From positions 32,001-96,000 of IMG/VR virus record IMGVR_UViG_3300025888_000011: 64,000 bases of DNA. One strand, written 5' to 3'. How positions within the stretch are numbered: the first letter of the stretch is position 1; each line of letters opens with the position of its first letter. The stretch comes from a virus. A program made the position numbers and the translations under genes. Under the pieces are notes generated by a model. That model searched no databases. It worked only from the letters and a program-made list of their open reading frames with translations, and was not told the origin of the DNA. This document shows, in pieces, positions 1 to 38,189 of this stretch.

Positions 1-185
1 ATTTTTAAATTATTATTAAAGTTTGAATAAGTTTCTTTAATATATTTATCTAATTCCTTTTCAAATTGAAACCCTTTGTGAAATGTTATTGTAACATAAT
101 TCCCACTTTTAGAAGTTTTGTCTCCTATTGTATTTGCTGATTCTTTTAATTTCTTATAAAATTCACCTATTAAAGATTTATTCAT
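1..185 (-). CDS. hypothetical protein, runs off the left edge
   Basis: ATG at 185 preceded by AGGAGG; frame MNKSLIGEFYKKLKESA... stays open to position 1. Confidence 0.6.
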   Translation of the reverse strand, partial: MNKSLIGEFYKKLKESANTIGDKTSKSGNYVTITFHKGFQFEKELDKYIKETYSNFNNNLK

Positions 186-517
186 GATGTAACCTCCTAT
201 TAATTATTATGTATTTGTTTCGTTTGTTTCTCAATTTCTTATTACATATAGAATATCATAGTTTTTATTGTTTGTAAAGTTTTATATTACTTTAGTCTTA
301 TTTGTTTTTCTTATATATTATATGATTGATATTAAAGAATAGTACCAATATATTAAGTGCTTATTATCAACTATAGTGTAGCTGAGAGCCTTTATGATGG
401 ATTATAAGAATGTAAGTGACTAATTGTACTAATAAAAATAAAGAAGCTTGTTATGGCTTCTTAGATGTTAACAATGTTTATATATTTATCTTATGTAATT
501 TAATTATTATATTATTA

Positions 518-1075
518 CTATTTAGTAGTATCATTGAAAGCGTTATATTCATTAGTCATTTCATTTACATTATTTATAGCAATATTATCTTTCTTATTAA
601 AATCAGTAACTGTTAATATTTTAATAGTTTTAAAGTTAGTTGGATTAATTTCTTTATCTGTTGTAATTAATTTAGCTTCATTTCCAATATATTTAGATGA
701 TATTTTATAAGATTCCCATTCTGTTCCTACTTTCAATATTATAGTACTTGTCGTTCCGTCTCCTGATACTATTCCATATGATTGATATGTTATTGGTTCT
801 TTAGTTTGAGTAGCTGAGATAAGAGATTTAGAAGGTTGAGTTGTTATAGTTTTATTAATAGTTCCATTGTTTGATTTGAATATAGTTGATATAAAATAAG
901 GTGTATCTAATTGATGTTCTGATATATCTGATTGAATACATTGTAATATACTAAAGTGAGAAGTATATGAAGGTAAAGTTTGATGTAATATTGGATTTAT
1001 TAAGATTGTTATTAATAGGATAATTGGAGTAGATATTTTTATTAGTTTAGATATTGATATAGTTGATTTATTCAT
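518..1075 (-). CDS. hypothetical protein with N-terminal membrane anchor
   Basis: 185 aa, hydrophobic IILLITILIN, AAGGTGG RBS. Confidence 0.7.
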   Translation of the reverse strand: MNKSTISISKLIKISTPIILLITILINPILHQTLPSYTSHFSILQCIQSDISEHQLDTPYFISTIFKSNNGTINKTITTQPSKSLISATQTKEPITYQSYGIVSGDGTTSTIILKVGTEWESYKISSKYIGNEAKLITTDKEINPTNFKTIKILTVTDFNKKDNIAINNVNEMTNEYNAFNDTTK

Positions 1076-1136
1076 TATTAATTACCACCTTTATTTTGTA
1101 TTATTATATTGATAAGATTGTAATAGATTTTTTTAC

Positions 1137-1364
1137 TTACTCTTCAATTATTATTTCACTATGACTATATCCTAAAAAGAATAATGTTGTTTCATATTCT
1201 GTTCGTCCTCGTCTACGCATTTCCTCTATCACTGGAACTTCAAATTCACTTTGTCTCTTTATTGCCAATTCTTCTGTAACACATAGACATTTTAGTTCTT
1301 CTATTGTTTCACTATCTCCATCAACTTCACATTTTATATGCTCAAATACTCCCCATACTTTCAT
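1137..1364 (-). CDS. hypothetical phage protein
   Basis: 75 aa, AGGAGGG RBS. Confidence 0.7.
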   Translation of the reverse strand: MKVWGVFEHIKCEVDGDSETIEELKCLCVTEELAIKRQSEFEVPVIEEMRRRGRTEYETTLFFLGYSHSEIIIEE

Positions 1365-1429
1365 AATAGTCCCTCCTATTTTTATTTTACTTAATTAATA
1401 TTATTAAAAAATAGTAGCTGATTTCTCAA

Positions 1430-1657
1430 CTACTCGTATATATTTAATGATACATAACATACATTTTCAAACTGCCAGTCTACATCAATACATGCTCCAC
1501 AATCTTTAATTACATTTAACTTAGCTACATTCTCTTCTATAATCCAGTTTGCAAAGTCACTATCATTTGTAGCTGTTAATATTTTATTCCATTTCTTTGT
1601 GATTGTCTCAATTGTTTTTCCTTTAATTAGTGCATCTATAGTTTTAATAAGTTTCAT
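1430..1657 (-). CDS. hypothetical phage protein
   Basis: 75 aa, GAGGAG RBS, consensus promoter upstream. Confidence 0.7.
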   Translation of the reverse strand: MKLIKTIDALIKGKTIETITKKWNKILTATNDSDFANWIIEENVAKLNVIKDCGACIDVDWQFENVCYVSLNIYE

Positions 1658-1696
1658 TATTAATCACTCCTCTTTAATATGTATCTTGTAATTACT

Positions 1697-1725
1697 ATTA
1701 TATAGATATTTTATATTATTGTCAA
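1697..1725 (-). promoter_or_regulatory. sigmaA promoter
   Basis: TTGACA-17 nt-TATAAT on minus strand; spacer carries ATAATATAAAA. Confidence 0.8.
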
Positions 1726-1786
1726 TACTATATTTAAATTCTTTTTATATTATTTATCAGAACACACAAAGTGAAAAGGGAGAGGA

Positions 1787-2335
1787 TTATCTTACTATTG
1801 ATAACCCTTTTAATATTTTTTCCATTTGTGCTATTCTTTTATAAGGTCTGTTACTTCCATTTACCCATTGTACAAAACATTCTGCAAAGTTTTCCATATA
1901 GTTTACATTAGCATATTTTGACTTGCCTGCTATATCAAATTTAATCATTCTATCATTCAAGTATGTTTCATGTATATAATGTCCTATCTCATGTATTACA
2001 GTATCTTCATCATATTTAGTTTCTTTTAATGTTATACATTCTCTGTAGTAAAATCCTAGTGTTTTTTTACTATCTCCTAAACTTTCCATTTCGGAATCAG
2101 CAATGATTTTTATTGTTGGTATTTTAATGTTTAATTTTGCAAGAACTTCCTTGACAGCCTTTTCTGATTTTGTTAAGTTTTCTATTATTTCAACTTCTGA
2201 AGCGTCTATACTGTAAAAATCATTTTCAGTTTCAATGTGTATTACATTATTTCTATCTGTGCAATCAAATACTTTACCTATCATACCATTAAATTTTACT
2301 GTTTTATTTAAATATTTTTCTATGTTGTTTTTCAT
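1787..2335 (-). CDS. zincin-like metallopeptidase (HExxH)
   Basis: VIHEIGH plus downstream Y...ENFAECF third-ligand motif. Confidence 0.7.
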   Translation of the reverse strand: MKNNIEKYLNKTVKFNGMIGKVFDCTDRNNVIHIETENDFYSIDASEVEIIENLTKSEKAVKEVLAKLNIKIPTIKIIADSEMESLGDSKKTLGFYYRECITLKETKYDEDTVIHEIGHYIHETYLNDRMIKFDIAGKSKYANVNYMENFAECFVQWVNGSNRPYKRIAQMEKILKGLSIVR

Positions 2336-2510
2336 TTTTAAAACTCCTTTTGTCTTAACTGCTTATTCTCATAAGTCAGTGACTTATTTAAGTTTTAAAA
2401 ATGAAGCGTTGCACCATCTACGGATACACTCGGATTTTAATTGGTCACTTCATTTTTAGGATTGTAACGCATCCCTGCAAGTAGTAAATTAATTCCTTAC
2501 TACAATTACT

Positions 2511-2539
2511 ATTATACTGATATTTTATATTATTGTCAA
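2511..2539 (-). promoter_or_regulatory. sigmaA promoter
   Basis: TTGACA-17 nt-TATAAT, near-identical to the promoter at 1697-1725. Confidence 0.8.
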
Positions 2540-3448
2540 CACTATTTAAAAATTCTTTTTATATTGTTTTATTAATTTAAAGTTTTATTTTTGTTTATCT
2601 TCTTACTTTATTATATGTTGAACTGTGTTAAATAGTACCTAATTATAATGTTATTCTAAAATAAAGTTGATATAAATATTATGTGATTATATTAGTTAAG
2701 TGATTGATTGTAATACTATTACAGAGTATCTAATGGCTTATATAAGCGTTATTATGAGTATGTTAATATAATTGTATAGAGCAATATAATAGATAGACTA
2801 ATGATAATATATGTTGACTGAGTAATGTATAAGTAATGTAATGATAGTAACATAGTGTTCCTTTATATAATATAGTTATATATGATTGCATATCAATAGA
2901 GTAGTGACTACATAAATTAGTGTTACTATTACATTATAAGTATGTTAGGCAAGACGTGAGTGAGTAAGTGTTAGTATATTGTATATACTATATGATTAAT
3001 GTATGACATAAAAGCCAGTGATAGTGTGTTAGATAATACCAATAGTATAATAGTATAAGAGATAACCTAATAAGGTATATAGTATTATAGTATGTGTATA
3101 GTAGTGTTAAGTGTATGGTAGTTAGTTTGTAAGATAGTATATATAATTACTATATAAATAGAGATAAGTATATAGGATAAGTGTATTAGTTATATAGCAC
3201 ACCAATAGATTAATATAATAGTAGCATAATAGATAAGATAGATTGAGATAAGGTATAAGATAGTATCATATGATATGTTATCTATATAGTAATAGCATTG
3301 TAGTATAAGAGTAATGGTATATATGTGTTGTGTATGATATAGTCATATGTTAGATGCTCTATTAAGTATATAGTAATAGCATTGATATAGTTAATAAGTT
3401 ATCAATAGGTTGTGCATATATGTAACAGATAAAGATAATAGATAGTAA

Positions 3449-3654
3449 TATACCCTATATAGGTATAAGATAATAGATAGTAGTATATATGTGTTTAACG
3501 TAGTGTATGTAACATATTGTTATACCCTTGACTATATATGTATACCTATACTAGGTATAATGATTATTAGTTATATAAACATAAGGTGTGTAAGGTATTA
3601 AGAGACATATAATAAGTATACCCTTTAATAAATTAGGATACCCCTATTGGGTAT
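3449..3654. repeat. three ATACC-N7-GGTAT palindromes
   Basis: TATACCCTATATAGGTATA (3449), TATACCTATACTAGGTATA (3541), ATACCCCTATTGGGTAT (3638). Confidence 0.7.
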
Positions 3655-4630
3655 AGGATATTAAATAGAATACGTCATACTATATAAAAAACTTAATAAC
3701 GATTTTGGGACGTATGCTAATTTTTTAAAATTCAGGTATCCTATTATAATATTAAATGCTAACTAACAATATTTACTCATTAGACTAGCACAACACCTAC
3801 TCATATACGTTCAGTTTAATTAAATCTATCTCTATTTGATTCTAATTGATAATACATACACAAAATTGGGTTAATATTAGAGTAATTTTAATTAATTTAT
3901 TAGTATAAAGGAACAAGTGTTCAATTCTATAGGACTAAATATGTATTTAATAACATAGAATTAGTGTTTTAAGTGGTAAAACTGGTATTATTTTGTGTTG
4001 TAATTATAATTGAGAATGGTTTAAAACGTAGGATATACCATAGATGGGGGCATAATTATCACTTTAGCACTTTAGCGTGGTGACGTATATCCCATGGGTA
4101 CAACAAGGAATAGGCACATCCCAATTTATCATTTCATATATTTCACATTATTTTATTCTCAATCAGCTATATTAATCATTAATTAATTTACTTTCTTATA
4201 AATATTAGTCTTGGTTTTATTCACATAATATTCACATTATATCCTTCTTATATCAAATAATCCCTAATTTAGCTCGTAGAACGTTTCGTAACTATGTAGG
4301 GAATATAACACCTAATCCCATTTTAAACCTCTTAGAATTAACCTCATATATTGCCCTTTATTATATATCAATCTCCTACAATCCCTTATTATACCTACGT
4401 TTAGTTCGACAACTATATTTATTTTCCTATTTAAACTACTATATTTATAAAACAGGGGCTATAATTTCCATTATAAATCCTTATATACTTTACCTTACAT
4501 CACCTTTTATAAATATAAACAAAATAATATTCAATTAATCTATAATAATTTTACATAAAAAAATAAAATAGAAAGTGTTTTCTCTCTATTTTTAGTAATA
4601 AATTAATATCATATAACTTATTTAATTTTA

Positions 4631-4813
4631 TTAATTAAAGTTATTTTCCTTTTCTCTTTTACTCATTGAATAAACTTGACTAAAAAATACAATTGTCATT
4701 ACAACTAACATTATAATATCATTCTGTACAATATATACAGATATAAAATATAATACTAATAATTGATTTAAACTCAATAATATTTTTACATAATCCATTT
4801 CCCTATTTCTCAT
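4631..4813 (-). CDS. small two-TM membrane protein
   Basis: 60 aa with two hydrophobic segments. Confidence 0.5.
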   Translation of the reverse strand: MRNREMDYVKILLSLNQLLVLYFISVYIVQNDIIMLVVMTIVFFSQVYSMSKREKENNFN

Positions 4814-5002
4814 TCCCTATAATTATCTATTCTCGTATGTATTATATTATAAAACTAAATTAATATACTCTTATCTCATTTGGTAATTATTTCAGACACA
4901 TAAACATGTTCTAGCAAAATAAAAAAGTAGAAGAATAAAATTAATCTCCTACTTAAAACTTATGTATTATTATATTAACATTAACATTTCAAAATAAATA
5001 AA

Positions 5003-5164
5003 TTAAACTCCTAATCCTCTTTTTAACAAACAAATATATTCTTCTATTTTCTTATATACAATTATTTCAATTAAATAAACTTTATTAATAAATTCCCTTT
5101 TCTTTATTTCTCTATTTAAATTTTTATATTGTTTTATATATTTAATCTTATCTCTATATTCCAT
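5003..5164 (-). CDS. small basic hypothetical protein
   Basis: 53 aa MEYRDKIKY...RGLGV, AGGAGG RBS; below ORF-track cutoff. Confidence 0.5.
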   Translation of the reverse strand: MEYRDKIKYIKQYKNLNREIKKREFINKVYLIEIIVYKKIEEYICLLKRGLGV

Positions 5165-5718
5165 TTATAATGCCTCCTAAGTAATTATATTTTACTTTAT
5201 TTATATTTCAATAATCAATCTTATAATAATAGTATATCACATTCTCAATATTATATACATAGTTTTATATTACTCTAATATATTTATATTCTTTTTAATA
5301 ATGCATTAATTATATTGTCTAGTTTCTTCTGTATTTTACTCTGTTCTATTGATAATCTATTATATTTACAGTTATTATATCAATATTATTCTATATTCAC
5401 AGGGGACTATAATTTCCATTCTAAGCCATTGTAATATAATAGATACTAGTGTACCTAAAATTTAATCAAACAATGTAGGGAGTATTGTATGGGAGGGGGT
5501 TATGAATTCATTAAATATGTTAATCTCTATATATGACTATACCCTTTATGAAAAATAAGTAAATAAAAAAAAGAGTAATATTTCTATCACTCTAATGAAT
5601 ATTATTATATTAAATTATATTTGTCTGTATTTATATTGTCAGATTATTTGACAAAAATATTATTGTCAATATAAATATGGTTATTTATTTCTTTATATAT
5701 TATTGTTATGAGATTATA

Positions 5719-5985
5719 TTATATAGTTGTTTCTATTTTTTCTTTTTTAACAAGCCTTATCACTTTATTTATAACTCCAGTTTTATCAATTATTACTTTA
5801 GTCACTTTATTTAAACTCATTAGAAAAATACATTGTCCAATTAATGGCAATCCTATATAACCTGCTCCTACTAAAACTCCTAATGTAGTATATAAAACAG
5901 TATTGGTAGTTGCTTTTGTATTTATGGCAAGTTGTTCGCACTTAGCTCTTTTCATAATCATATCATCCATACATATATATTTCAT
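5719..5985 (-). CDS. small membrane protein
   Basis: 88 aa, hydrophobic core, AAGGAG RBS. Confidence 0.7.
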   Translation of the reverse strand: MKYICMDDMIMKRAKCEQLAINTKATTNTVLYTTLGVLVGAGYIGLPLIGQCIFLMSLNKVTKVIIDKTGVINKVIRLVKKEKIETTI

Positions 5986-5997
5986 GCTTTAGCTCCT

Positions 5998-6252
5998 TTA
6001 TTTAATAATGTGTAATGTTTTAAGGAAATCTTTCCAACCAGCAAAACTAGCTTTTGTTAATGTTAATAATACAGGGGGATGCGTATTTAAATAATGCATA
6101 TATTGAACGACATCTGTAGCAATAGCACTTACCCCTGTAAATTTAATTAATCTAGCATAATCTTTTTGGTCTAAAGATTTCATTGCAATTTCAGATAATA
6201 AAGTTAATCCAGTAATTTTTATAACGTCTCCTACTAAAAATCCAAATGTCAT
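5998..6252 (-). CDS. SpoIIIAC/SpoIIIAD-like small membrane protein
   Basis: VIKITGLTLLSEIAMKSLDQKDYARLIKFTG resembles the SpoIIIAC pattern IFKIAGIG...GKKEYAQWVTLLG. Confidence 0.55.
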   Translation of the reverse strand: MTFGFLVGDVIKITGLTLLSEIAMKSLDQKDYARLIKFTGVSAIATDVVQYMHYLNTHPPVLLTLTKASFAGWKDFLKTLHIIK

Positions 6253-27998: not shown

Positions 27999-30900
27999 AT
28001 GGTAAATCGTCAATTATTTACAATGAAATTTAAGTCCACGAGACTAAAAAAATATAAGTACGATATAACTATCAACTATCAAGAGGCTTTAGACAATAAT
28101 GAAATAATAGCTCTAGCAGATTCTCAAATACTTAGGACGATAAGAGATGTTATTGCTGAAAAAGGAGGTGATTCTAGTAGAATATTAGATAGAGAATTAT
28201 TAGAAGAATTTTATCATGAAATTAATATAATAAGGAGAAAGAAAAGAAATACAACTGAAGACACTTTAAATAATGTTATGAAAATAAAAGAAATAAAAGA
28301 TAAAATAACCAACATGTGCTTCGTACCAGAATACATAACTATTGTAATAGAAGACATAAGTCATTATGATTATTTATATGAGAATGGACTAACACTTAAC
28401 GGAGTAGTTTATTATAGGCTCTCAGTATCGGCAGGGCAAGGGAGAGTATCTACTGTAGTATTTTGTTCAAGTGATATATTAGAGACGGTAAATACAATAT
28501 TAGACAACGGTAGGAACAAGGAACAAGTATTCTCACCTTCTAAATTTAATGCATATAAAGGTACATATAGTTCAGCAACAAAACCTGTAACAACTCCTAG
28601 ATTTTGTGTAGTACCTGATTTTGAATCGCCTACTACATTTGATGTTAATTGGGTTACAGAAACAAAAGGAGAACTAGACGATGAGATTAAACCAAAAACA
28701 ATAACAAAGAATTTTAATAGATGGGACGGAATGGGAATTATTTCTCCTACATTTGCCAAACAATGGGCAGATGATTTAGAGTTAGATTACATTCCTGCTG
28801 AATTTTGCACCCGTCAAAGTTATTTAAAAGGTATGTTTGGGGTGTTTGATTTTCACGAGTTTTGTGAGATTAAGAATAATGGAAATTATATAACTAAATC
28901 AGTTTATAAAGATAAAGAGGGCAATGATATAGAAATTGATTTAAGGGATTATGATATGATTGTTACGGAAGGACAATTTAAACTTTGGAACTCATTTAAT
29001 AGTTTAGAACAATATAAAAAAAATTGTGAAACTAATAATCTTAAATGGGGAGTAGCTTTATATACAGATAAAGAATTAAAAAATAATTTAAAATATAATT
29101 ACCAATTTTTGCAATCGTTAAATATAAAATCTAAAGATGTTCCAAAATTATGTGAAGAATTTATTAACTGGATACAAGGAGTTAGTACAGATGATGTATG
29201 GTATTCAATATTGTTTTTAATGGGTGTAAATGTAACAGAAACCTCTATAATGAATTATTTAAGAGATAGTAAAAACTATTGGGTAAAAAGTTTAATTATA
29301 AATCATGATTTAATAAATGATAAATATGTAAAACAAAAGATATATAATCTTATAAAAACTAAAATTGACAAAGGGTGTATGGGAAGTATAATCTTAACAG
29401 GTAATAATCAAACTTTAGTGTCAGACCCTTATGCTATGATGGAGTATGTGTGTGGCATGGAGGTAAAAGGATTGTTAGGGAAGAGAAAATACTACTCAAA
29501 CTATTGGAACGAAAGAGGAGTAACGGAGATATTAGGAACAAGACCACCACTGACTTATAGGTCAGAATGTTTAAAGATGGAATTAGAAAACACAGAAGAG
29601 CAAAGATATTGGTATAAACATATGTATGGTGGAATTATTGTAAATGTTCATGGATGCGAAACAGATAATTTTGCAGGTAGTGATAAACTTAATGTCACCA
29701 TTATATAGTAATATATAATGTAAAACTTGGTGAACCTATAAATATAGGGTGTGTCGAAAGATGCTAACGGTGAAACTCTAAGGTTAAAGTGTGTGTTAAA
29801 TTGATAATATAATAATATAAAAGGAGGTGAAATAATGAATGATTATTACATATATGAATGGTTTAATATAGAAACGGATGAAGTTTTTTATGTAGGTAAG
29901 GGCAAGAAAGGAAGACATAAGATAATTACAGGGAGGAATCCTTATTTCACAAATTATTATAATAAATATAATTGTGAAAGTAGAATAGTGTTTAATAATT
30001 TAACAGAATTAGAAGCATTTGAATTAGAAATTAAAACAATAAAAAGATATAAAGAAAATTGTCTTTGCAAGTGTAATTTAACAGAGGGAGGAGAACAACC
30101 TCCGACATTATATGGAAAAGATAATGCTATGTATGGAAGACCTTGGTGGGATGATAATACGCCTATAGAAAAAATTGAAAAATGGAGAAAAAGTAGATAT
30201 TCTTTCGGGTGTGGTGAATTAAATTTACAGTTTGGGATTTCACCAAAAGATAGAATGGATAAGGATACATATGAAGGATGGAAAGAAAAACATATTGGTT
30301 TAGGTATAGGAGAAAATAATTCTCAATATCAAGTGTCTCCGAAAGATAGAATGGATGAGAAAACTTATCTTCAATGGAAGGAAAATCATAAATTTATAAT
30401 TGGAGATAAAAACCCTAATGCAAAATGCGTAAACATGTATGATATTAATAATAAATTATATAAAAGTTTTACATACATAGGTGACTGTGTTAAATTTCTA
30501 ATTGATAATAATATTACAATATTCAAAGAGAATACAATAAGAACAAAAATTAGAAATTCATCATCAGAAACTATTCCTTTTGAGGGATATTATTTTAAAG
30601 TAATATAAAACAAACACACATTTAACTATGACAATACCGTGCCAAGCCCTAACAATATAGTTTATTCTATGTTAGTGGAAGGTGTAACGACTAAATTGGG
30701 TTGTATAACGCCCTAAGAGGGTAAATTTAGGCGAAAATCCTTATCCCGTAGTGCCAAGCATCCTATTTAATTGAGGATGAAGAGATAGTCTAGTCCGACT
30801 TCGTTAAGAAGTGTTAAAGTATTACGAAAGTAACGGTGTACACGTTTGATTTTGACTTTTTGTCAACAACTTCCAATTCTGTGATAGTAAATTCAACTTA

Positions 30901-31969
30901 TGAAAATGAATTACCAATAGTCTATGAAGCACCGAAACCTAAAAAAATAATATTTACAAATGATGATTTATTTAATGCAGATAAATTTACATTTGGTTCT
31001 ATAATAGGGGCTATAACTAACAAAAGCACTACAGGGCATGCAATGTTAACTCATTTAAAAGATACATATGGTATAGAAAGTAGAGAGTATACAACAGTAT
31101 TAGACCGAATTAAGATGTGTACTAAATTGCAAAGTGCCCAAATTGATAAGGCTAAGATAGGAAAAGAGGTAAAAGGGATTCCTAAAACATGGACAGATAG
31201 AAGATATATAGAGAGTTTGGAAATTGATAAAAAAGAGAAAGATTTCTTAAAGTCAATTATGATGGACAGACACCCATACTTTTTTATACATTTATATCCT
31301 GATACAAAGAGAAAATATAAAAAACATATAGAAGGATATAATATATCGTGTGAACATAAATTTGGTATGAATGTTGAAGAGTTAATTTTAAAAGCAGATA
31401 AAACTAAGGAAGAAAATGAATATATAAAAGCATATTATGAATATATGCCTGTAATTTACACTGATGGAGTTGTAAATTCTATATGTAGATATATTGAAAG
31501 TGTTGATTTTAAAATTAGAGAAAAAGTAAGCACTAAATCAGAGGACACTCATTCAATTCTTATGAGAAACGAGAATATTGAGGATGAAGAAGTTTATCAA
31601 GAGATATTAAAAAAATATAAAGTATTTAAAAAAGAATTAAAAAATAATAACAATGTAAAGAATTCAAGTAAGAAACAGAAGTATGATGAGACATTATCAC
31701 AAGAAGTTAATGGAATTTATAAAAAATTTAAAAGTGAAATGGATAAAGAATGCCCTAATACATATGAATTAGTTGATTACTTAATTAAAATATTTTATGT
31801 TGAGTTTCCAAGTGCAAATAAGGATTTATTATGGAATACATATGGTAAATATATATATGATAATTTAAAAAGTAAGAATCAAAATCCTGTATTATTCCCT
31901 TTTCCAAATAAAAAAGGAGACATAGAATATCTTAATCAAAAATTTTTACTCAAGGAGGTAATAATTTAA
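27999..31969 (+). CDS. YonO-like single-subunit (RdRP-like) RNA polymerase, join(27999..29684,30845..31969)
   Basis: SAGQGR, DGMGIIS, KG, RPP motifs; splicing restores AGSDFDFD catalytic triad; SPbeta-like synteny with HU and head genes. Confidence 0.8.
29685..30844 (+). mobile_element. group I intron with internal homing endonuclease
   Basis: P1 exon GUGAU/GUCAC with U.G at the splice site; AACGACUA and AAGAGAUAGUC (P7); terminal G 30844; in-frame junction. Confidence 0.9.
29835..30608 (+). CDS. intron-encoded GIY-YIG homing endonuclease
   Basis: YYIYEW...FYVGKG...R...E...NLTEGG; repeated GExN..SPKDRMD modules; looped out by GTGTGTT/AACACAC pairing. Confidence 0.85.
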   Translation: MNDYYIYEWFNIETDEVFYVGKGKKGRHKIITGRNPYFTNYYNKYNCESRIVFNNLTELEAFELEIKTIKRYKENCLCKCNLTEGGEQPPTLYGKDNAMYGRPWWDDNTPIEKIEKWRKSRYSFGCGELNLQFGISPKDRMDKDTYEGWKEKHIGLGIGENNSQYQVSPKDRMDEKTYLQWKENHKFIIGDKNPNAKCVNMYDINNKLYKSFTYIGDCVKFLIDNNITIFKENTIRTKIRNSSSETIPFEGYYFKVI

Positions 31970-32862
31970 TGGAATTTAAATATAATGAAAAATTATACGG
32001 AGAAACAATATGTAAAAATGGATTTCAGACTGAATATATAAACTCTGAATTAACTATATTGGTTAAATACTTAAAAGAGGTTAAATCTTTTAAAAGAAAA
32101 TATACAGAAGCTTTTTTATATGGGTTCTGTGAAAAATATATTGAGGGATTTAATAAAGTTAAATTCTTCAAAGTTATTGATAGAGCGATAGTGAATGGTA
32201 GAAAAAGAAGCAATAAATTAATAGTTATAGATAAAATACCAATATATAAAGAGGAAATAGAAGCCATTGATAAATTAAAGGTTGAACATGAACATAAAAA
32301 ATTATTATTTACTTTTTTAGTTAGTAAAAAATTAAGTCTTACTATTAGAAAAATACATGATGAAAATATAAATGAAATGTCAGCTTACTTTGAAGGAAAT
32401 AAGAAAAGATATAATGATATATTTAAACTGACTAACATAGTTGGTAAATACAAAATTGAGGATATGATACATACATTAGTTAGTAAAAAAATAATAGAAT
32501 CGGTAATCAATGGTGGAATAGTTTTAAAATTTCTTTATCCTATGTACGATATTAGAATAGATAGTTATGAAGTTAAAAATTACAAAACAGATAAAATAGA
32601 AAATAGAGAAAAACAAATTATAATTTATAATGTTAAAGATTATAAGTTATATGAAAATATTAGTGATTTTGATAACATAGGATATGTATTTGATTATTAT
32701 AAAGGAGAAAATGGGATTAAGAAATGTGAATGTTGTAAAAAATATATTAAACAAAAGAGCAAAAAACCACCTAAATACTGTGAAGAATGTATTAAAGAAA
32801 AGCAAAAAGAATGGGAAAAACTAAGTAAAGCTAAAGCTAAAAAGGAACTTGGCAAGTTTTAA
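31969..32862 (+). CDS. hypothetical protein with C-terminal zinc finger, coupled to the RNAP gene
   Basis: TAATG overlap; CECC...YCEEC. Confidence 0.75.
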   Translation: MEFKYNEKLYGETICKNGFQTEYINSELTILVKYLKEVKSFKRKYTEAFLYGFCEKYIEGFNKVKFFKVIDRAIVNGRKRSNKLIVIDKIPIYKEEIEAIDKLKVEHEHKKLLFTFLVSKKLSLTIRKIHDENINEMSAYFEGNKKRYNDIFKLTNIVGKYKIEDMIHTLVSKKIIESVINGGIVLKFLYPMYDIRIDSYEVKNYKTDKIENREKQIIIYNVKDYKLYENISDFDNIGYVFDYYKGENGIKKCECCKKYIKQKSKKPPKYCEECIKEKQKEWEKLSKAKAKKELGKF

Positions 32863-33181
32863 TAATTACATCAATACATGTTGTAAACCTAGTCATACCA
32901 ACGGTTTAAGAGGTTTCAATATAATTTGTGAAATTTTCGGTATATGGTAGGAAGTAGTAATATAAAATTACCATTTTTAAACATGCTAAGGTAAAGCATA
33001 GTGTGTTTATCATAAGGAATAAAATAAAAAATTAATATTACATAACTATCACATAAAATAATACGTCATCTATTATCATCCTAACTCACGGTGCTTTAGG
33101 ATATACGAGGATAAAGGAAAACCTCTCAAACCTGATGATAAATAATCCTAGAAAGTAGCAAGTTTAGGACTAATATAATAT

Positions 33182-33257
33182 GGCGATGTGGCGAAATTGG
33201 TATCGCAACGCACTTGTAATGCGTAGATTGAAGATTCGAGTTCTTTCATCGCCTCCA
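33182..33257 (+). tRNA. tRNA with UGU anticodon (Thr by anticodon), atypical identity
   Basis: 76-nt cloverleaf: GGCGATG/CATCGCC, GCGA/TCGC, ACGCA-CTTGTAA-TGCGT, TTCGAGT loop, encoded CCA. Confidence 0.85.
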
Positions 33258-33469
33258 ATAGACTCGCCTGATAGTAAAAGGCAAATTCATTTTTACTCTC
33301 CTTTTTTGAGGTAAGCTTCTCACTTACCTCAGTTAAATTTATAACAGGGAGAAAATTTTTATGAGAATAAACAATAATATAAAATTAAGTTTAACATTTA
33401 ATTAGTATTTTAGTCGAAAGACAGAAATAAATAAAAGGGTGATTACCAAACATCAAAAGGAGTTATAAT

Positions 33470-34231
33470 ATGGTAAATATAAGAAAGAATATTCTAGAAC
33501 AAGATATTAATGATTTATTCAAAAGGATTAATAAAGAAAAAGAATTAAAAGAGAACAGAATAATAATGAGCGAGAGCAACATATTTAAAACGGTTTACAG
33601 AATGGAATACGTTTCAGAAAAGAATTATTCTAATTACAGAAAATTAATTGATTCATTATCTAAATTATATAATACATACAAACAATTAGATTATGAAAAT
33701 TACAATACTCAATTTGTATTATCATTAATAAGTAGATTAGAAGAGGAAACTGAAAACGTTCATGATTTAATGAGAGATTCGTTGAAAAATGAAAGAGATG
33801 ACCAATACCGATGTTTAAGTGATTCTTATATCAAGTTAATTGATTTGGTTGGAAATATAAGTAGAGATATTCCTTATGATGGAAATGAAATAATGAATTA
33901 CGCTCTTACTCTCACAGGAATTAAATATGTATGGGGAGGAGAAACAGAACAAGGATTTGATTGTTCAGGATTTACTAAATATGTATTTGAACATTTTGGA
34001 TTAGATATTGGTAGAACAACTTGCTTGCAAATTACACAAGGAAAACATGTTGATAAAAGTGATTTAAAAGAAGGAGATTTAGTATTCTTTGGAAATATAG
34101 AATTACCTCATCAAGTAGGAATATATATAGGAAAAGACTCATTTATAAATGCACCAAAAACAGGTAATGTTGTTAAAGTCAGTAAAATGGAAAACAGAGA
34201 GGATTATGTAACAGGAAGAAGAATAATATAA
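33470..34231 (+). CDS. NlpC/P60 (C40) domain protein
   Basis: YVWGG...FDCSGF...GDLVFF...VGIYIG. Confidence 0.85.
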   Translation: MVNIRKNILEQDINDLFKRINKEKELKENRIIMSESNIFKTVYRMEYVSEKNYSNYRKLIDSLSKLYNTYKQLDYENYNTQFVLSLISRLEEETENVHDLMRDSLKNERDDQYRCLSDSYIKLIDLVGNISRDIPYDGNEIMNYALTLTGIKYVWGGETEQGFDCSGFTKYVFEHFGLDIGRTTCLQITQGKHVDKSDLKEGDLVFFGNIELPHQVGIYIGKDSFINAPKTGNVVKVSKMENREDYVTGRRII

Positions 34232-34333
34232 ATAAGTATTTTAGCTTTGAGACAAGCTTTAAATAGAATTAATGCAGATTCCTGCAAAGTGGAATAAATA
34301 ACCAATGGGTTATATTAAAGGAGATTAATTATT

Positions 34334-34648
34334 ATGAAAACAACAACTAATAAAGAACAATTGGTAGAGAAAATAGCATTGGAAACAGGATTTACTAAAA
34401 AAGACACAAAAATTTTTCTTGAGGGTTTTATCAAAGTAACAGGAACGGTATTACAAGAAGATGGAGAAATTCAGCTCGTTGGTTTTGGTAAATTTGGTAC
34501 AAGAGATATAGCTGAAAAATCAGGAGTATGTAAATTACAAAAGGATTCAGCAGGTAATGTAATTGAAACACCATTTACTACAGAAGCACACAAGCAACCA
34601 TTTTTTAAAGTTGGAAAAGGTTTGAAAGACAAAGCAAATGCAAAATAA
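34334..34648 (+). CDS. HU-family DNA-binding protein (YonN-like)
   Basis: NKEQLV...IQLVGFGKF...PFFKVGKGLK. Confidence 0.9.
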   Translation: MKTTTNKEQLVEKIALETGFTKKDTKIFLEGFIKVTGTVLQEDGEIQLVGFGKFGTRDIAEKSGVCKLQKDSAGNVIETPFTTEAHKQPFFKVGKGLKDKANAK

Positions 34649-34716
34649 AATAATATAAAATAAAGTTTAAAAAGAATTATTATATGTAATATGAATGTAT
34701 TATAAATTAAAATTTG

Positions 34717-34768
34717 TGAAGCTAGGAGTAAGATATGAATAATATTAAATTTCCTAGCTTCATTTTTT
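34717..34768 (+). terminator. intrinsic terminator
   Basis: TGAAGCTAGGA/TCCTAGCTTCA stem plus T-run. Confidence 0.65.
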
Positions 34769-34839
34769 ATGCGTTTTTAATAAAACGTAAATAATGTAGG
34801 GATTTCTATTTAATATAGAAAAACTGAGGGAAGATTTAG

Positions 34840-35310
34840 GTGGGTGTATTAATGAAAAAAGGAACAAAGATACATAACAGAGTTAGAAAAGTGAGAGAAG
34901 ATACATTATATAAATTATATTTTAAACTACCACATTCTTGTAAATCTTGTTGCTATAATAGCAATTGTCCTCATATAGAGAATATGAATGATATTACAAA
35001 TTGTGATAATTACAAAGAATCAATTGAATTAAATGAACTTGTTTTAATGATGAAAGAACAAAATATAAACATTGAATCATTTTGTGAAAAATACAAAGTT
35101 AAGAAAGAATATTTTATGGAAATGATAAAAGGCAAAATGCTAATGTCATATAAATATTATATTGCAATCTGCACTAGACTTCACGTTGAAGAAATGGATG
35201 AATTTTATATTTATAAAGCAAGATTTTTAAATGAAGAAAAGGAAATAATTAGAAACGAAAATAAAACCTTAAAAAGTGAGGTACAAATAGATGCAAATAT
35301 ATTATACTAA
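34840..35310 (+). CDS. Cys-cluster plus HTH-like hypothetical protein
   Basis: CKSCC...C...C followed by an XRE-like helical segment. Confidence 0.6.
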   Translation: MGVLMKKGTKIHNRVRKVREDTLYKLYFKLPHSCKSCCYNSNCPHIENMNDITNCDNYKESIELNELVLMMKEQNINIESFCEKYKVKKEYFMEMIKGKMLMSYKYYIAICTRLHVEEMDEFYIYKARFLNEEKEIIRNENKTLKSEVQIDANILY

Positions 35311-36781
35311 TAAAAATATTAACTGCAATGGCGATGGTGTAACAGGAAGTATGAATTTACTAACTGTTAAAAGAGATAATATGAAAGATTATAATTGTTT
35401 GGTGGATTTTGGAATGGTACAAAGTTCTAAAATCAAAGGTGACCAATTACACAAAATAAATAATAGAGATTTATTATTAGGGGGTGGTTTAGAACATGAG
35501 AATGTAATTATTAACGATATACTGTTAACGCATTCTCATGCATAAGTAGACCATATTGCTTTGCTCGGGCGTGTTCCTAGCATTACCGAGTTAGACCACG
35601 CACATATTAGAATGACTGAATTAAGTGCTAAAATAGCTACCGTGATACTACAAGATGCTTGTCATATTTTATTAAAAGAACATGAAAAATCAGTTAAAAA
35701 AAGTAAGGATAAAAAACAACAAACTGTTCCTTATATAACTCAAAAAAGCACAGATGATGTTATAGAAAGAATACAATCTTATTCATTTGATAAACAAATT
35801 TTAGTCGATGAAGGGATAAAAATTACGTTCAAAAGTAACGGACATTTGCCCGGTTCTGCTTCAATATTAATGGAAATAAGAGAGGGTTCATACGAAAAAA
35901 AGACAATTTTATTTAGCGGAGATACATCAGGCACAAGACCATTTATGCTAACAAAACCACTAGATATTAAAGAAAATAAAATTGATTTTATACTCAGTGA
36001 ATCTACATACAATAATAAATTAATAGAAAAAAACAACTTTGAGAGTGAATTTGTAAAGTATATTCAAGAAACTTGTATAGAAAAGAAAGGAAAGATAATT
36101 GCTCCTGTTTTCGCAAGTGGACGTAGCACAAATTCTCTAATTCAATTGAGACACGTTTATGAACAACATCCTGAATTTAAAGATATAAAAGTTTACCTTT
36201 GTAGTCCTATGGCATGTAAATTACATAAAATTCTATGTAATGACACAAATAAAGAATTTTATGCAGAGGAATGGCATGACGAACTTGATATAGTTGATTG
36301 GGGACAAGTTTCCTATGTTGAATCATTTAGAGCAGTTGTAAAAATGTTAAATAATCCAGACCCTTGTGTGATATTTGCAAGTGCAGGTATGATTGGGGCT
36401 TATTCAGAATACATAATAGGACAATTAGTATCTACTCGTAAAAATCGTGTAGTGTTTCTCGGATATCAATGTGTAGGGAGTGTCGGAGATTCTTTGCAAC
36501 AAGGAATACAAAAGACGATGACAGTCGAGGATGAAGAAGGAAAGAGAAAAAGTGTTAATATTAATGCGAAAATTTCTACTGTCAAAGGAATGAGTGGACA
36601 TTCGGATTACAAAGAATTATGCAAATTATGGAGTTCAGTCGAAAAGAAAAAATTAAAAACTATTCTTTTAAATCATGGAAATCCTGATGGAATGCATTTC
36701 TTTAAAAAAGAATTACAAAAAGCATTACCAAATGTAGATATTAAAATTACTAAATATAATGAAATCGTTAGACTTTGTTAA
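35291..36781 (+). CDS. MBL-fold beta-CASP nuclease with one in-frame TAA at 35543 (recoded or pseudogene)
   Basis: both ORFs share one frame; VDFG, THSHA*VDH, GHLPGS, FSGD, ESTY, SGHSD, NHG motifs all present. Confidence 0.8.
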
Positions 36782-37025: not shown

Positions 37026-38189
37026 ATGGAAGAAAAATTATTATTAAAGAAATCAGCAATATTGTGGGTGAACGAATACTATAATTATGATAAAGAGGAT
37101 TGTATTTTACTAAAAGTATTTAGAAAAAATTTAACAGAATCATATGATATTCTAATAGATAAATCTGATTTTGAATTAGTTTCACAAGGTCAATGGTATG
37201 GTCATATGAGTAGAAAAAATACTCATTTAAAAAATATATTACATATATTATGGACTCATACTAAAAACAACAAGAAAGTAACATCTGACATATATCAATG
37301 GATTCTAGATAGTAAAAACGAAAATCGTATAGTAGACCATATAAGTATGGATAGACAAGATAATAGAAGACAAAATTTAAGATTCGCAACAGCAAAAGAA
37401 AACACTGTAAATCAAGAATATACTGGATGGAGTTATCAAGATGGTAAGTATTGTAGTTACATTTATTGTGATTCTATATATTTTTATTTGGGTAGCTATG
37501 ATAATAAAGAGGATGCAGAAGCAATTTACTTAAAAGCTTATATTATAATGGGCTATGATAAAATTTCTGAATCTTGCAAATCAAGAATTCAACTAGCGAA
37601 TATTAGACTTTCTGAAGAAGATTGTTCTAGTAAATATCTTAACAGATTAATAATGTATAGAAATGAAGGGGTTATACCTAAAATCGACAAAGAATTGATT
37701 AAACTTATAAAATTATCTACATTCCAAGGTAATGGATTGGGATATAATTATGATAAGCCAACTAAAAGATATTTAGTAAGAATTAAAATAAATAATAAAG
37801 AAGTTAATATAGGTAGATATAAAACAGAAAAAGAAGCTAATGATATATATTTAAAATCATGTTTGATAACAAACAAGAATGACCAATATTCTCAGATTGA
37901 AAAAAGAATACAAGAACATAACATTATATTAACTGAAGAAGATTATAAACATAAATATTTAAAAAAGGTTTATAACTTATATAATAATATTGACGAAGTT
38001 ACTGTAAATGGGAGATTTAATTATACATATGAAGAGAACATGAATATAATTATAAAATTAGTAAATGAAGGAGTTAATTGGAATAGAATATCACAATATT
38101 TAAGAGAAAATATAAAAGGACTTGAAGGAGCAAAAGGCGAAATGGTAAAAGTAAAATATAATAAGTATATAAAAGCATTAAGTATTTAA
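37026..38189 (+). CDS. HNH endonuclease with two AP2-like domains
   Basis: VDHISMDRQDNRRQNLR; YLGSYD..EDA and NIGRYKTEKEA. Confidence 0.85.
   Translation: MEEKLLLKKSAILWVNEYYNYDKEDCILLKVFRKNLTESYDILIDKSDFELVSQGQWYGHMSRKNTHLKNILHILWTHTKNNKKVTSDIYQWILDSKNENRIVDHISMDRQDNRRQNLRFATAKENTVNQEYTGWSYQDGKYCSYIYCDSIYFYLGSYDNKEDAEAIYLKAYIIMGYDKISESCKSRIQLANIRLSEEDCSSKYLNRLIMYRNEGVIPKIDKELIKLIKLSTFQGNGLGYNYDKPTKRYLVRIKINNKEVNIGRYKTEKEANDIYLKSCLITNKNDQYSQIEKRIQEHNIILTEEDYKHKYLKKVYNLYNNIDEVTVNGRFNYTYEENMNIIIKLVNEGVNWNRISQYLRENIKGLEGAKGEMVKVKYNKYIKALSI

Follow-up and report, generated by a model that had tools for sequence, protein, structure and literature searches.

To our knowledge, translational bypassing is among the rarest of recoding events, with essentially one well-studied case in a bacterial virus, gene 60 of phage T4, and one mitochondrial system. 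A related event is the programmed +1 frameshift of prfB, the gene of release factor 2, which takes place at the site CUU UGA C. The cassette of T4 gene 60 has been called unique (10.1101/2022.08.31.505936). In the mitochondria of Magnusiomyces capitatus, 81 mobile 'byp' inserts are skipped by translational jumping while an unused codon occupies the A site (PMC5009743). In engineered stop-hops of E. coli, a tRNA leaves the codon preceding a stop and re-pairs just past it, so that nine bases yield one amino acid (Weiss et al. 1987, as presented in PMC5009743). No natural in-frame stop-hop was known according to the review of Atkins et al. 2016, which considered that interest in the phenomenon would be broadened by counterparts of gene 60 with a shorter range or by a regulatory use (PMC5009743). 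Here we describe a beta-CASP nuclease gene that is probably decoded by such a hop. It lies in a window of 64,000 nucleotides (bases 32001-96000 of the 141-kb IMG/VR virus record IMGVR_UViG_3300025888_000011; 27% G+C, metagenome-assembled), to which all unprefixed positions refer, and its metal-binding motif is interrupted by a stop codon.

The layout found in the window, GCA-UAA-GUA, is the same as that of the engineered stop-hops. The latter are, however, synthetic and have matched codons, whereas the present site is natural and conserved, has variable gaps among relatives, and in the window has a landing codon that is a near-match (G·U). The similarities to T4 gene 60, with its 50-nt gap and its MobA element, include the location in a phage gene and within a conserved region of an enzyme, the stop right after the take-off codon, the take-off-like landing codon and the exact restoration of the protein; an HNH endonuclease gene also lies nearby in the window. 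The differences are that the gap is of 1-23 nt rather than 50 (or 20), that no take-off stem-loop was found, that there is no sequence homology and that most of the interrupted relatives have no adjoining endonuclease gene. Like the 'byp' inserts, the stretches that would be skipped here are short and varied, their omission restores a conserved protein, and take-off and landing codons are often matched at two of three positions; unlike them, they occupy a single fixed site in one gene of a bacterial virus and contain a true stop codon. As to prfB, an allele with a 1-nt insert (L016/L019) reads GCC UGA C and would resume at GAC after a +1 slip, and four alleles have the weak UGA-C context. Yet, no upstream Shine-Dalgarno stimulator is present here, GCC does not belong to the classic slippery codons, and in the window the allele stays in frame.

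A beta-CASP nuclease gene with an interrupted metal-binding motif

The gene occupies positions 35291-36781 of the + strand, from an ATG at 35291 to a TAA at 36779-36781, in one frame whose sole internal stop is the TAA at 35543-35545. A Shine-Dalgarno-like GAGG, read directly from the sequence, is present at 35278-35281, 9 nt 5' of the ATG. The first coding segment (35291-35542; 84 codons) encodes motif 1 of the metallo-beta-lactamase (MBL) fold, VDFGM, and the His-x-His-Ala half of motif 2. The second one (35549-36781; 410 codons and the stop) encodes the Asp-His of motif 2, MBL motifs 3 and 4, the beta-CASP domain and the RMMBL domain. The junction reads CAT TCT CAT GCA TAA GTA GAC CAT, corresponding to His (35531-35533), Ser (35534-35536), His (35537-35539), Ala (GCA, 35540-35542), the TAA, GTA (35546-35548), Asp (GAC, 35549-35551) and His (35552-35554). 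A preliminary description of this DNA had noticed that HSHA-stop-V-DH exceeds the HxHxDH motif by two codons. The letters confirm this, and the exact motif is obtained only when 35543-35548 is skipped.

The C-terminal part of the protein matches the Pfam families Beta-Casp (PF10996, 2.3e-13) and RMMBL (PF07521, 4.4e-10), both above their gathering scores. The best matches in the PDB were CPSF73/CPSF3, archaeal CPSF/FttA, Integrator subunit 11 (IntS11) and TTHA0252 (E from 4e-26 to 5e-12). These proteins could be aligned from motif 2 to motif C, with 'lithshadh' in the phage protein standing opposite 'lithfhldh' in CPSF3. The residues H173, D199, E225, H425 and H450 (the His of motif 3, the Asp of motif 4 and beta-CASP motifs A, B and C) are invariant in the alignment of the relatives and match CPSF3, and motif 1, VDFGM, is kept by every N-terminal fragment. 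Together with the lack of any second stop or frameshift, this bears out the earlier statement that the remaining catalytic motifs are intact across ~490 codons. The phage protein has the Beta-Casp and RMMBL domains in common with CPSF73, IntS11, FttA and TTHA0252, but it is only 25-30% identical to them and has neither KH nor other extra domains. These comparisons indicate that the gene is that of a CPSF73-like beta-CASP ribonuclease, of which the HxHxDH metal-binding motif is interrupted; its product would be one protein of 494 residues.

Relatives were identified by a protein search with the read-through translation, and the DNA of the matches and of related N-terminal fragments was fetched to read the junctions. 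Two close relatives were full length (P0003, 484 residues; P0006, 493 residues), and about ten others, with 57-87% identity, comprised 406-427 residues covering the last 82% of the query. The uninterrupted relatives (L002 and L010) have His-x-His-Ala-Asp-His; they read THSHADHIALLGR, i.e. HSHADH with no extra codons, which means that the window contains exactly 6 additional nucleotides, the TAA and the proposed landing codon GTA (35543-35548). The other relatives carry inserts of 1-23 nt starting with a stop. Independent JGI, ENA and Logan assemblies yielded 11 distinct interrupted alleles. They share one site, except for a single allele lying a codon earlier, and their inserts measure 1, 5, 6, 7, 9 and 23 nt; all three frame offsets and all three stop codons were represented.

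The shortest insert is a single T following GCC (L016, L019). The 5-nt inserts are TGACA after GCG (L005) or after GCC (L009, L020), TAACT after GCG (L014), TAGTA after GCG (L021) and TAGCT after GCA (L025), and the 6-nt insert is TAAGTA after GCA, in the window. Two alleles have 7 nt, TGAGGCG after GCA (L008) and TGAGTAT after CAC, one codon earlier (L006, L007, L012, L022). The longest inserts are TGAAAAACT (9 nt) after GCC (L024) and a 23-nt insert, with TGA first and GCT last, after GCT (L003, L004). The codon at which the frame resumes is GAC, except in L008 (GAT) and in the allele lying a codon earlier (GCY GAC). Deletion of the insert restores HSHADH exactly in every allele, with no residue gained or lost. 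Six more database fragments stop exactly at H-[S/A]-H-A, and one of these, from another contig, is 99% identical to that of the window.

All 11 alleles open with TAA, TAG or TGA, for which the chance, based on the triplet frequencies of the genome, is 0.084 per allele and 1.4e-12 for eleven if they are independent. Since synonymous sites are saturated, a neutral triplet would not have remained a stop. In a tree of the C-terminal part, both uninterrupted lineages were nested among interrupted ones, and the TGACA allele was present in both deep clades. This suggests that the interruption is old, has been repeatedly remodelled and has been cleanly lost at least twice (or exchanged by recombination). 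Most of the close homologues are interrupted in the same place, and the existence of two lineages that are not indicates that the insert can be dispensed with.

Codon alignments of the 80-codon and 410-codon parts were compared pairwise. The ratio of nonsynonymous to synonymous substitutions (dN/dS) was about 0.1-0.3 in both parts of the gene, with proportions of synonymous differences (pS) of 0.5-0.75, near saturation, and no further stop or frameshift was found in any allele across the ~490 codons. Both halves are under purifying selection. This bears on the possibility, also raised in the preliminary description, that the gene is dead or decaying, or that the TAA results from an assembly or sequencing error. 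The window does belong to a metagenome-assembled virus record, and public contigs did not cover the junction: two peat-metagenome DNA runs contain the stretch or part of it, but their contigs end at 35537, short of the junction, and no RNA run containing it was listed in the sequencing-run search. Yet, the 99%-identical fragment of another contig ends at the same Ala, there are eleven alleles from many samples, and strong purifying selection has acted on both halves, at saturated synonymous divergence, without leaving a second defect. As the alleles come from separate assemblies, the interruption cannot have been introduced by errors of sequencing or assembly. It is real and conserved, and a dead gene or an error is hardly a credible explanation.

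Two other observations were made on the relatives. In L015 (positions 500-620; contig Ga0172378_10156039), HSHADH is intact and a 1-nt frameshift occurs ~60 codons later, in an A/G-rich linker (AAAGG versus AAGGG in L002). As this contig is short (1.8 kb), an error is the probable cause of the frameshift, but a second recoding site is conceivable. L016 (positions 744-3809) and L019 were recovered from different samples, yet their identity is 100% from the upstream region up to and across the junction. They show a small divergent patch 100-230 nt downstream, their identity falls to ~85% over the final 650 nt of the gene, and past the gene they are unrelated, so that the nuclease gene is a mosaic produced by recombination. 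We rejected a gene-conversion tract with its centre at the junction, since the breakpoints lie ~100 and ~600 nt downstream of it.

A proposed stop-dependent hop over gaps of variable length

We propose that, in the window, peptidyl-tRNA-Ala sits on GCA (35540-35542) in the P site when the TAA at 35543 enters the A site. The tRNA would then unpair, the mRNA would slip by 6 nt, and the tRNA would re-pair with GUA (G-C, G·U and A-U pairs). Decoding would restart at GAC with Asp-tRNA, generating exactly the His-Ser-His-Ala-Asp-His metal site, and the 494-residue protein would be made only by ribosomes that do not terminate at TAA 35543. In the related phages, the hop would cover gaps of 5, 7, 9 or 23 nt, and the 1-nt allele, in which GCC UGA C is arranged like the prfB site, would be decoded via a prfB-like +1 slip.

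This proposal is based on the codons found at both ends of the gap. In 9 of the 11 alleles, the stop is immediately preceded by an Ala codon. The landing codon, i.e. the last three bases of the gap, is Ala-like (G1 or C2 of GCN) in all nine alleles with an Ala take-off codon (p 4e-6), and it is a true GCN in three of these nine (GCT..GCT over 23 nt, GCA..GCG and GCA..GCT; p 4e-4). The landing codon GUA, shared by the window and L021, is pairable with the UGC anticodon via a central G·U. A TAA two codons before the landing GCT closes the resume frame of the 23-nt allele, so no simple frameshift suffices and only a bypass or an AUA start reaches this GCT. Gaps that start with a stop and end with an Ala-like codon follow the logic of stop-dependent P-site re-pairing, as encountered in engineered stop-hops, in prfB and in T4 gene 60 (PMC5009743), and therefore favour a programmed hop. 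The pattern of conservation is directly apparent in the alleles, and from it we infer that the probable mode of decoding is a programmed hop that depends on the stop, replaced in the 1-nt allele by a +1 shift. The preliminary description had proposed take-off at GCA and landing on GUA, and the landing pattern now found in the wider series fits this re-pairing, with the reservation that two lineages are uninterrupted.

Several points weigh against this interpretation. We found no conserved stimulator, be it a hairpin, an upstream Shine-Dalgarno-like element or synonymous-site constraint, and the efficiency of the hop may therefore be very low, as it is for engineered stop-hops. In four alleles, with ACA or ACT as landing codon, the first codon position cannot pair with the anticodon of tRNA-Ala. 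Some alleles (L005 with GTG; L008 and L016 with ATG) contain a start codon from which a C-terminal piece could be made separately. Furthermore, the alleles share ancestry, so that the p-values (1.4e-12, 4e-6 and 4e-4) overstate their independence.

As to stimulators, the preliminary description had pointed out a GC-rich hairpin (35563-35591, + strand) downstream of the stop. This hairpin does occur in the minimum-free-energy fold of the window. Yet, the 101-nt region folded no better than shuffled sequences (z -0.48; fold z-scores overall ranged from -1.4 to +1.4), and across 13 sequences 64.6% of the cells were paired, as compared with 64.0% in shuffles, with no covariation. RNAalifold predicted zero pairs. 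The hairpin being neither significant nor conserved, it was rejected as a stimulator and is probably incidental. Likewise, no Shine-Dalgarno-like element was observed upstream of the junction, and the synonymous positions around it vary.

We considered that the stop might simply be decoded as an amino acid. Reassignment of a stop codon was ruled out, as the gene itself ends in TAA, all three stops serve as first codon of the gap and most alleles change frame. A suppressor tRNA was ruled out too, a tRNA-Thr(UGU) being the only tRNA in the 141-kb record. More generally, the occurrence of all three stops and all three frame offsets means that neither reassignment, nor a suppressor tRNA, nor plain readthrough can be the common solution. 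The tRNA-Thr gene is located at 33182-33257, and the Thr codons ACA and ACT are the last codon of the gap in four of the alleles found in relatives, a match that is probably a coincidence.

Readthrough in the window and the 9-nt allele, combined with -1 or +1 frameshifting in the 5- and 7-nt alleles, would lead to a protein with two or three extra residues (HSHA-xx-DH). The 5-, 6- and 7-nt alleles would each gain two residues by a -1, 0 or +1 event, which is a curious regularity. Yet, the 1-nt allele and the uninterrupted relatives are strictly HxHxDH, with the same spacing in CPSF3, and the 23-nt allele has stops in the path. Furthermore, the resume frame of L005 and L014 opens only 12 nt before the Asp, with no slippery site, and the record contains no suppressor tRNA. 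We regard this explanation as quite improbable. Removal or alteration of the extra bases in the RNA before translation, by a small excision and ligation or by editing, is more improbable still. A conserved catalytic motif is a typical target of introns and inteins, but no known splicing system takes out 1-23 nt, and the inserts share no structure or boundary motif beyond the leading stop. This stop would be useless if the bases were removed from the RNA, yet it is kept in all 11 alleles.

The alternative to which we give most weight, while still judging it unlikely, is that translation terminates at the stop and reinitiates nearby, and that the 84- and ~410-residue pieces assemble, with no need for a hop. 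Purifying selection on both halves is also compatible with this scheme, and phage enzymes split by mobile elements can stay active (Aeromonas phage NrdA, as cited in 10.1101/2022.08.31.505936). Start codons in the resume frame are present just before Asp-His in L005, with a GTG overlapping the TGA, and in L008 and L016, with an ATG formed by CAT-GCN. Such ATGs, however, are forced by the His-Ala codons, and no ATG, GTG or TTG precedes Asp-His in the window, L014, L021 and L024. Between the stop and Asp-His, the window offers only GTA; the sole candidates are ATA in L003 and L025 and CTG in L009 and L020. A Shine-Dalgarno-like sequence is lacking as well, and would not fit into gaps of 1-9 nt. 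The first TTG after the stop of the window, at 35561, lies 3' of the Asp-His pair, and a start at this codon would drop these metal ligands; the earlier remark that it has no clear Shine-Dalgarno sequence holds, as no purine run was seen 5' of it. In addition, separate initiation leaves unexplained why the gap ends with an Ala-like codon.

Distribution, genomic neighbourhood and possible purpose of the gap

Megablast of the locus against GenBank phages gave no match. Tblastn with an uninterrupted homologue retrieved only relatives with <30% identity, in unannotated gut-phage records and in Clostridium phage c-st, and no cultured relative. A scan of GTDB genomes yielded only one homologue, uninterrupted and 26% identical, in a Chitinophaga metagenome-assembled genome, and scans of IMG/VR with protein and DNA patterns yielded only two other contigs. 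A crude genome-wide scan for split frames returned 95 adjacent-frame pairs, nearly all of which were ordinary neighbouring genes. On the + strand of the window, there was one other in-frame pair, with a start codon 21 nt after the stop; it looks like two ordinary genes. Within the literature consulted, searches on the gene family in connection with SPbeta and on natural short stop-hops disclosed no report of this gene or of such a hop.

In the relatives, the nuclease gene belongs to a conserved block that also encodes a YonO-like RNA polymerase, an HU-like protein, a protein of ~140 residues, YonK, YonJ and ClpP. These relatives are SPbeta-like phages known only from metagenomes. The nuclease gene is syntenic with that of the YonO-type (RdRP-fold) RNA polymerase in the window (27999-36781), in L009 and in L010, and it directly follows the polymerase gene in L002 (positions 55-4455). 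CPSF73, IntS11 and FttA act in transcription termination or 3' processing. By analogy, the nuclease might serve the phage polymerase in termination or 3' processing. In the uninterrupted relative L010, 1.5 kb following YonK (positions 4711-6252) contain no open reading frame of >68 residues; this stretch may correspond to an intron, to a gene for an RNA or to a decayed gene.

A free-standing HNH endonuclease gene (37026-38189, + strand; 387 residues; Pfam HNH_3 3.1e-6, PHROG HNH endonuclease 2.1e-19) is located 245 nt past the end of the nuclease gene, between the gene at the YonK position and the next one. It is lacking at that position in the closest relatives, L003 and L005, and so is a recent insertion of a free-standing endonuclease gene in the window; it is also absent from most interrupted relatives. 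The phages with the TGAGTAT allele have a GIY-YIG endonuclease gene downstream of the nuclease gene (L007, positions 3928-4588) and a gene for a 466-residue treble-clef zinc-finger (DUF4379) protein upstream of it (L006, positions 768-2168). The nuclease region is often visited by mobile endonuclease genes.

Two purposes of the gap may be envisaged. In T4 gene 60, it is the 50-nt gap that confers protection against the homing endonuclease MobA (Bonocora 2011, as cited in 10.1101/2022.08.31.505936). Similarly, the gap of the nuclease gene may be a tolerated scar that shields the DNA of the motif from a homing endonuclease. However, no endonuclease gene was found within 3 kb of the nuclease gene in L003, L005, L008 and L009 and, as the mosaic of L016 and L019 is not centred on the junction, a link with endonucleases is unproven. 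Alternatively, the gap may throttle the synthesis of the nuclease or make it conditional on the activity of release factors, in which case the rate of hopping should rise when termination is slow. The preliminary description had supposed such a control for a nuclease that it took to be toxic.

In the output of gene callers, each interrupted gene is divided in two, a "hypothetical protein" followed by a truncated "metallo-beta-lactamase", and similar recoded phage genes are therefore probably mis-annotated widely. The relatives provide, at one codon, a series of natural alleles (0, 1, 5, 6, 7, 9 and 23 nt, whose landings are cognate, near-cognate or mismatched), which is a ready test of the requirements of hopping. 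It is tempting to go further and to speculate, though we think it rather doubtful, that these phages possess a natural, maintained family of minimal stop-hops (+1 to +23 nt), all taking off from one fixed codon of the nuclease gene and needing little beyond a stop and an Ala-like landing codon. The gap would then be selected to tie the synthesis of the nuclease, which may act on the transcripts of the YonO-type polymerase, to release-factor activity or to host translational stress. If this is true, bypassing would have a regulatory use in these phages and would not merely be a tolerated scar.

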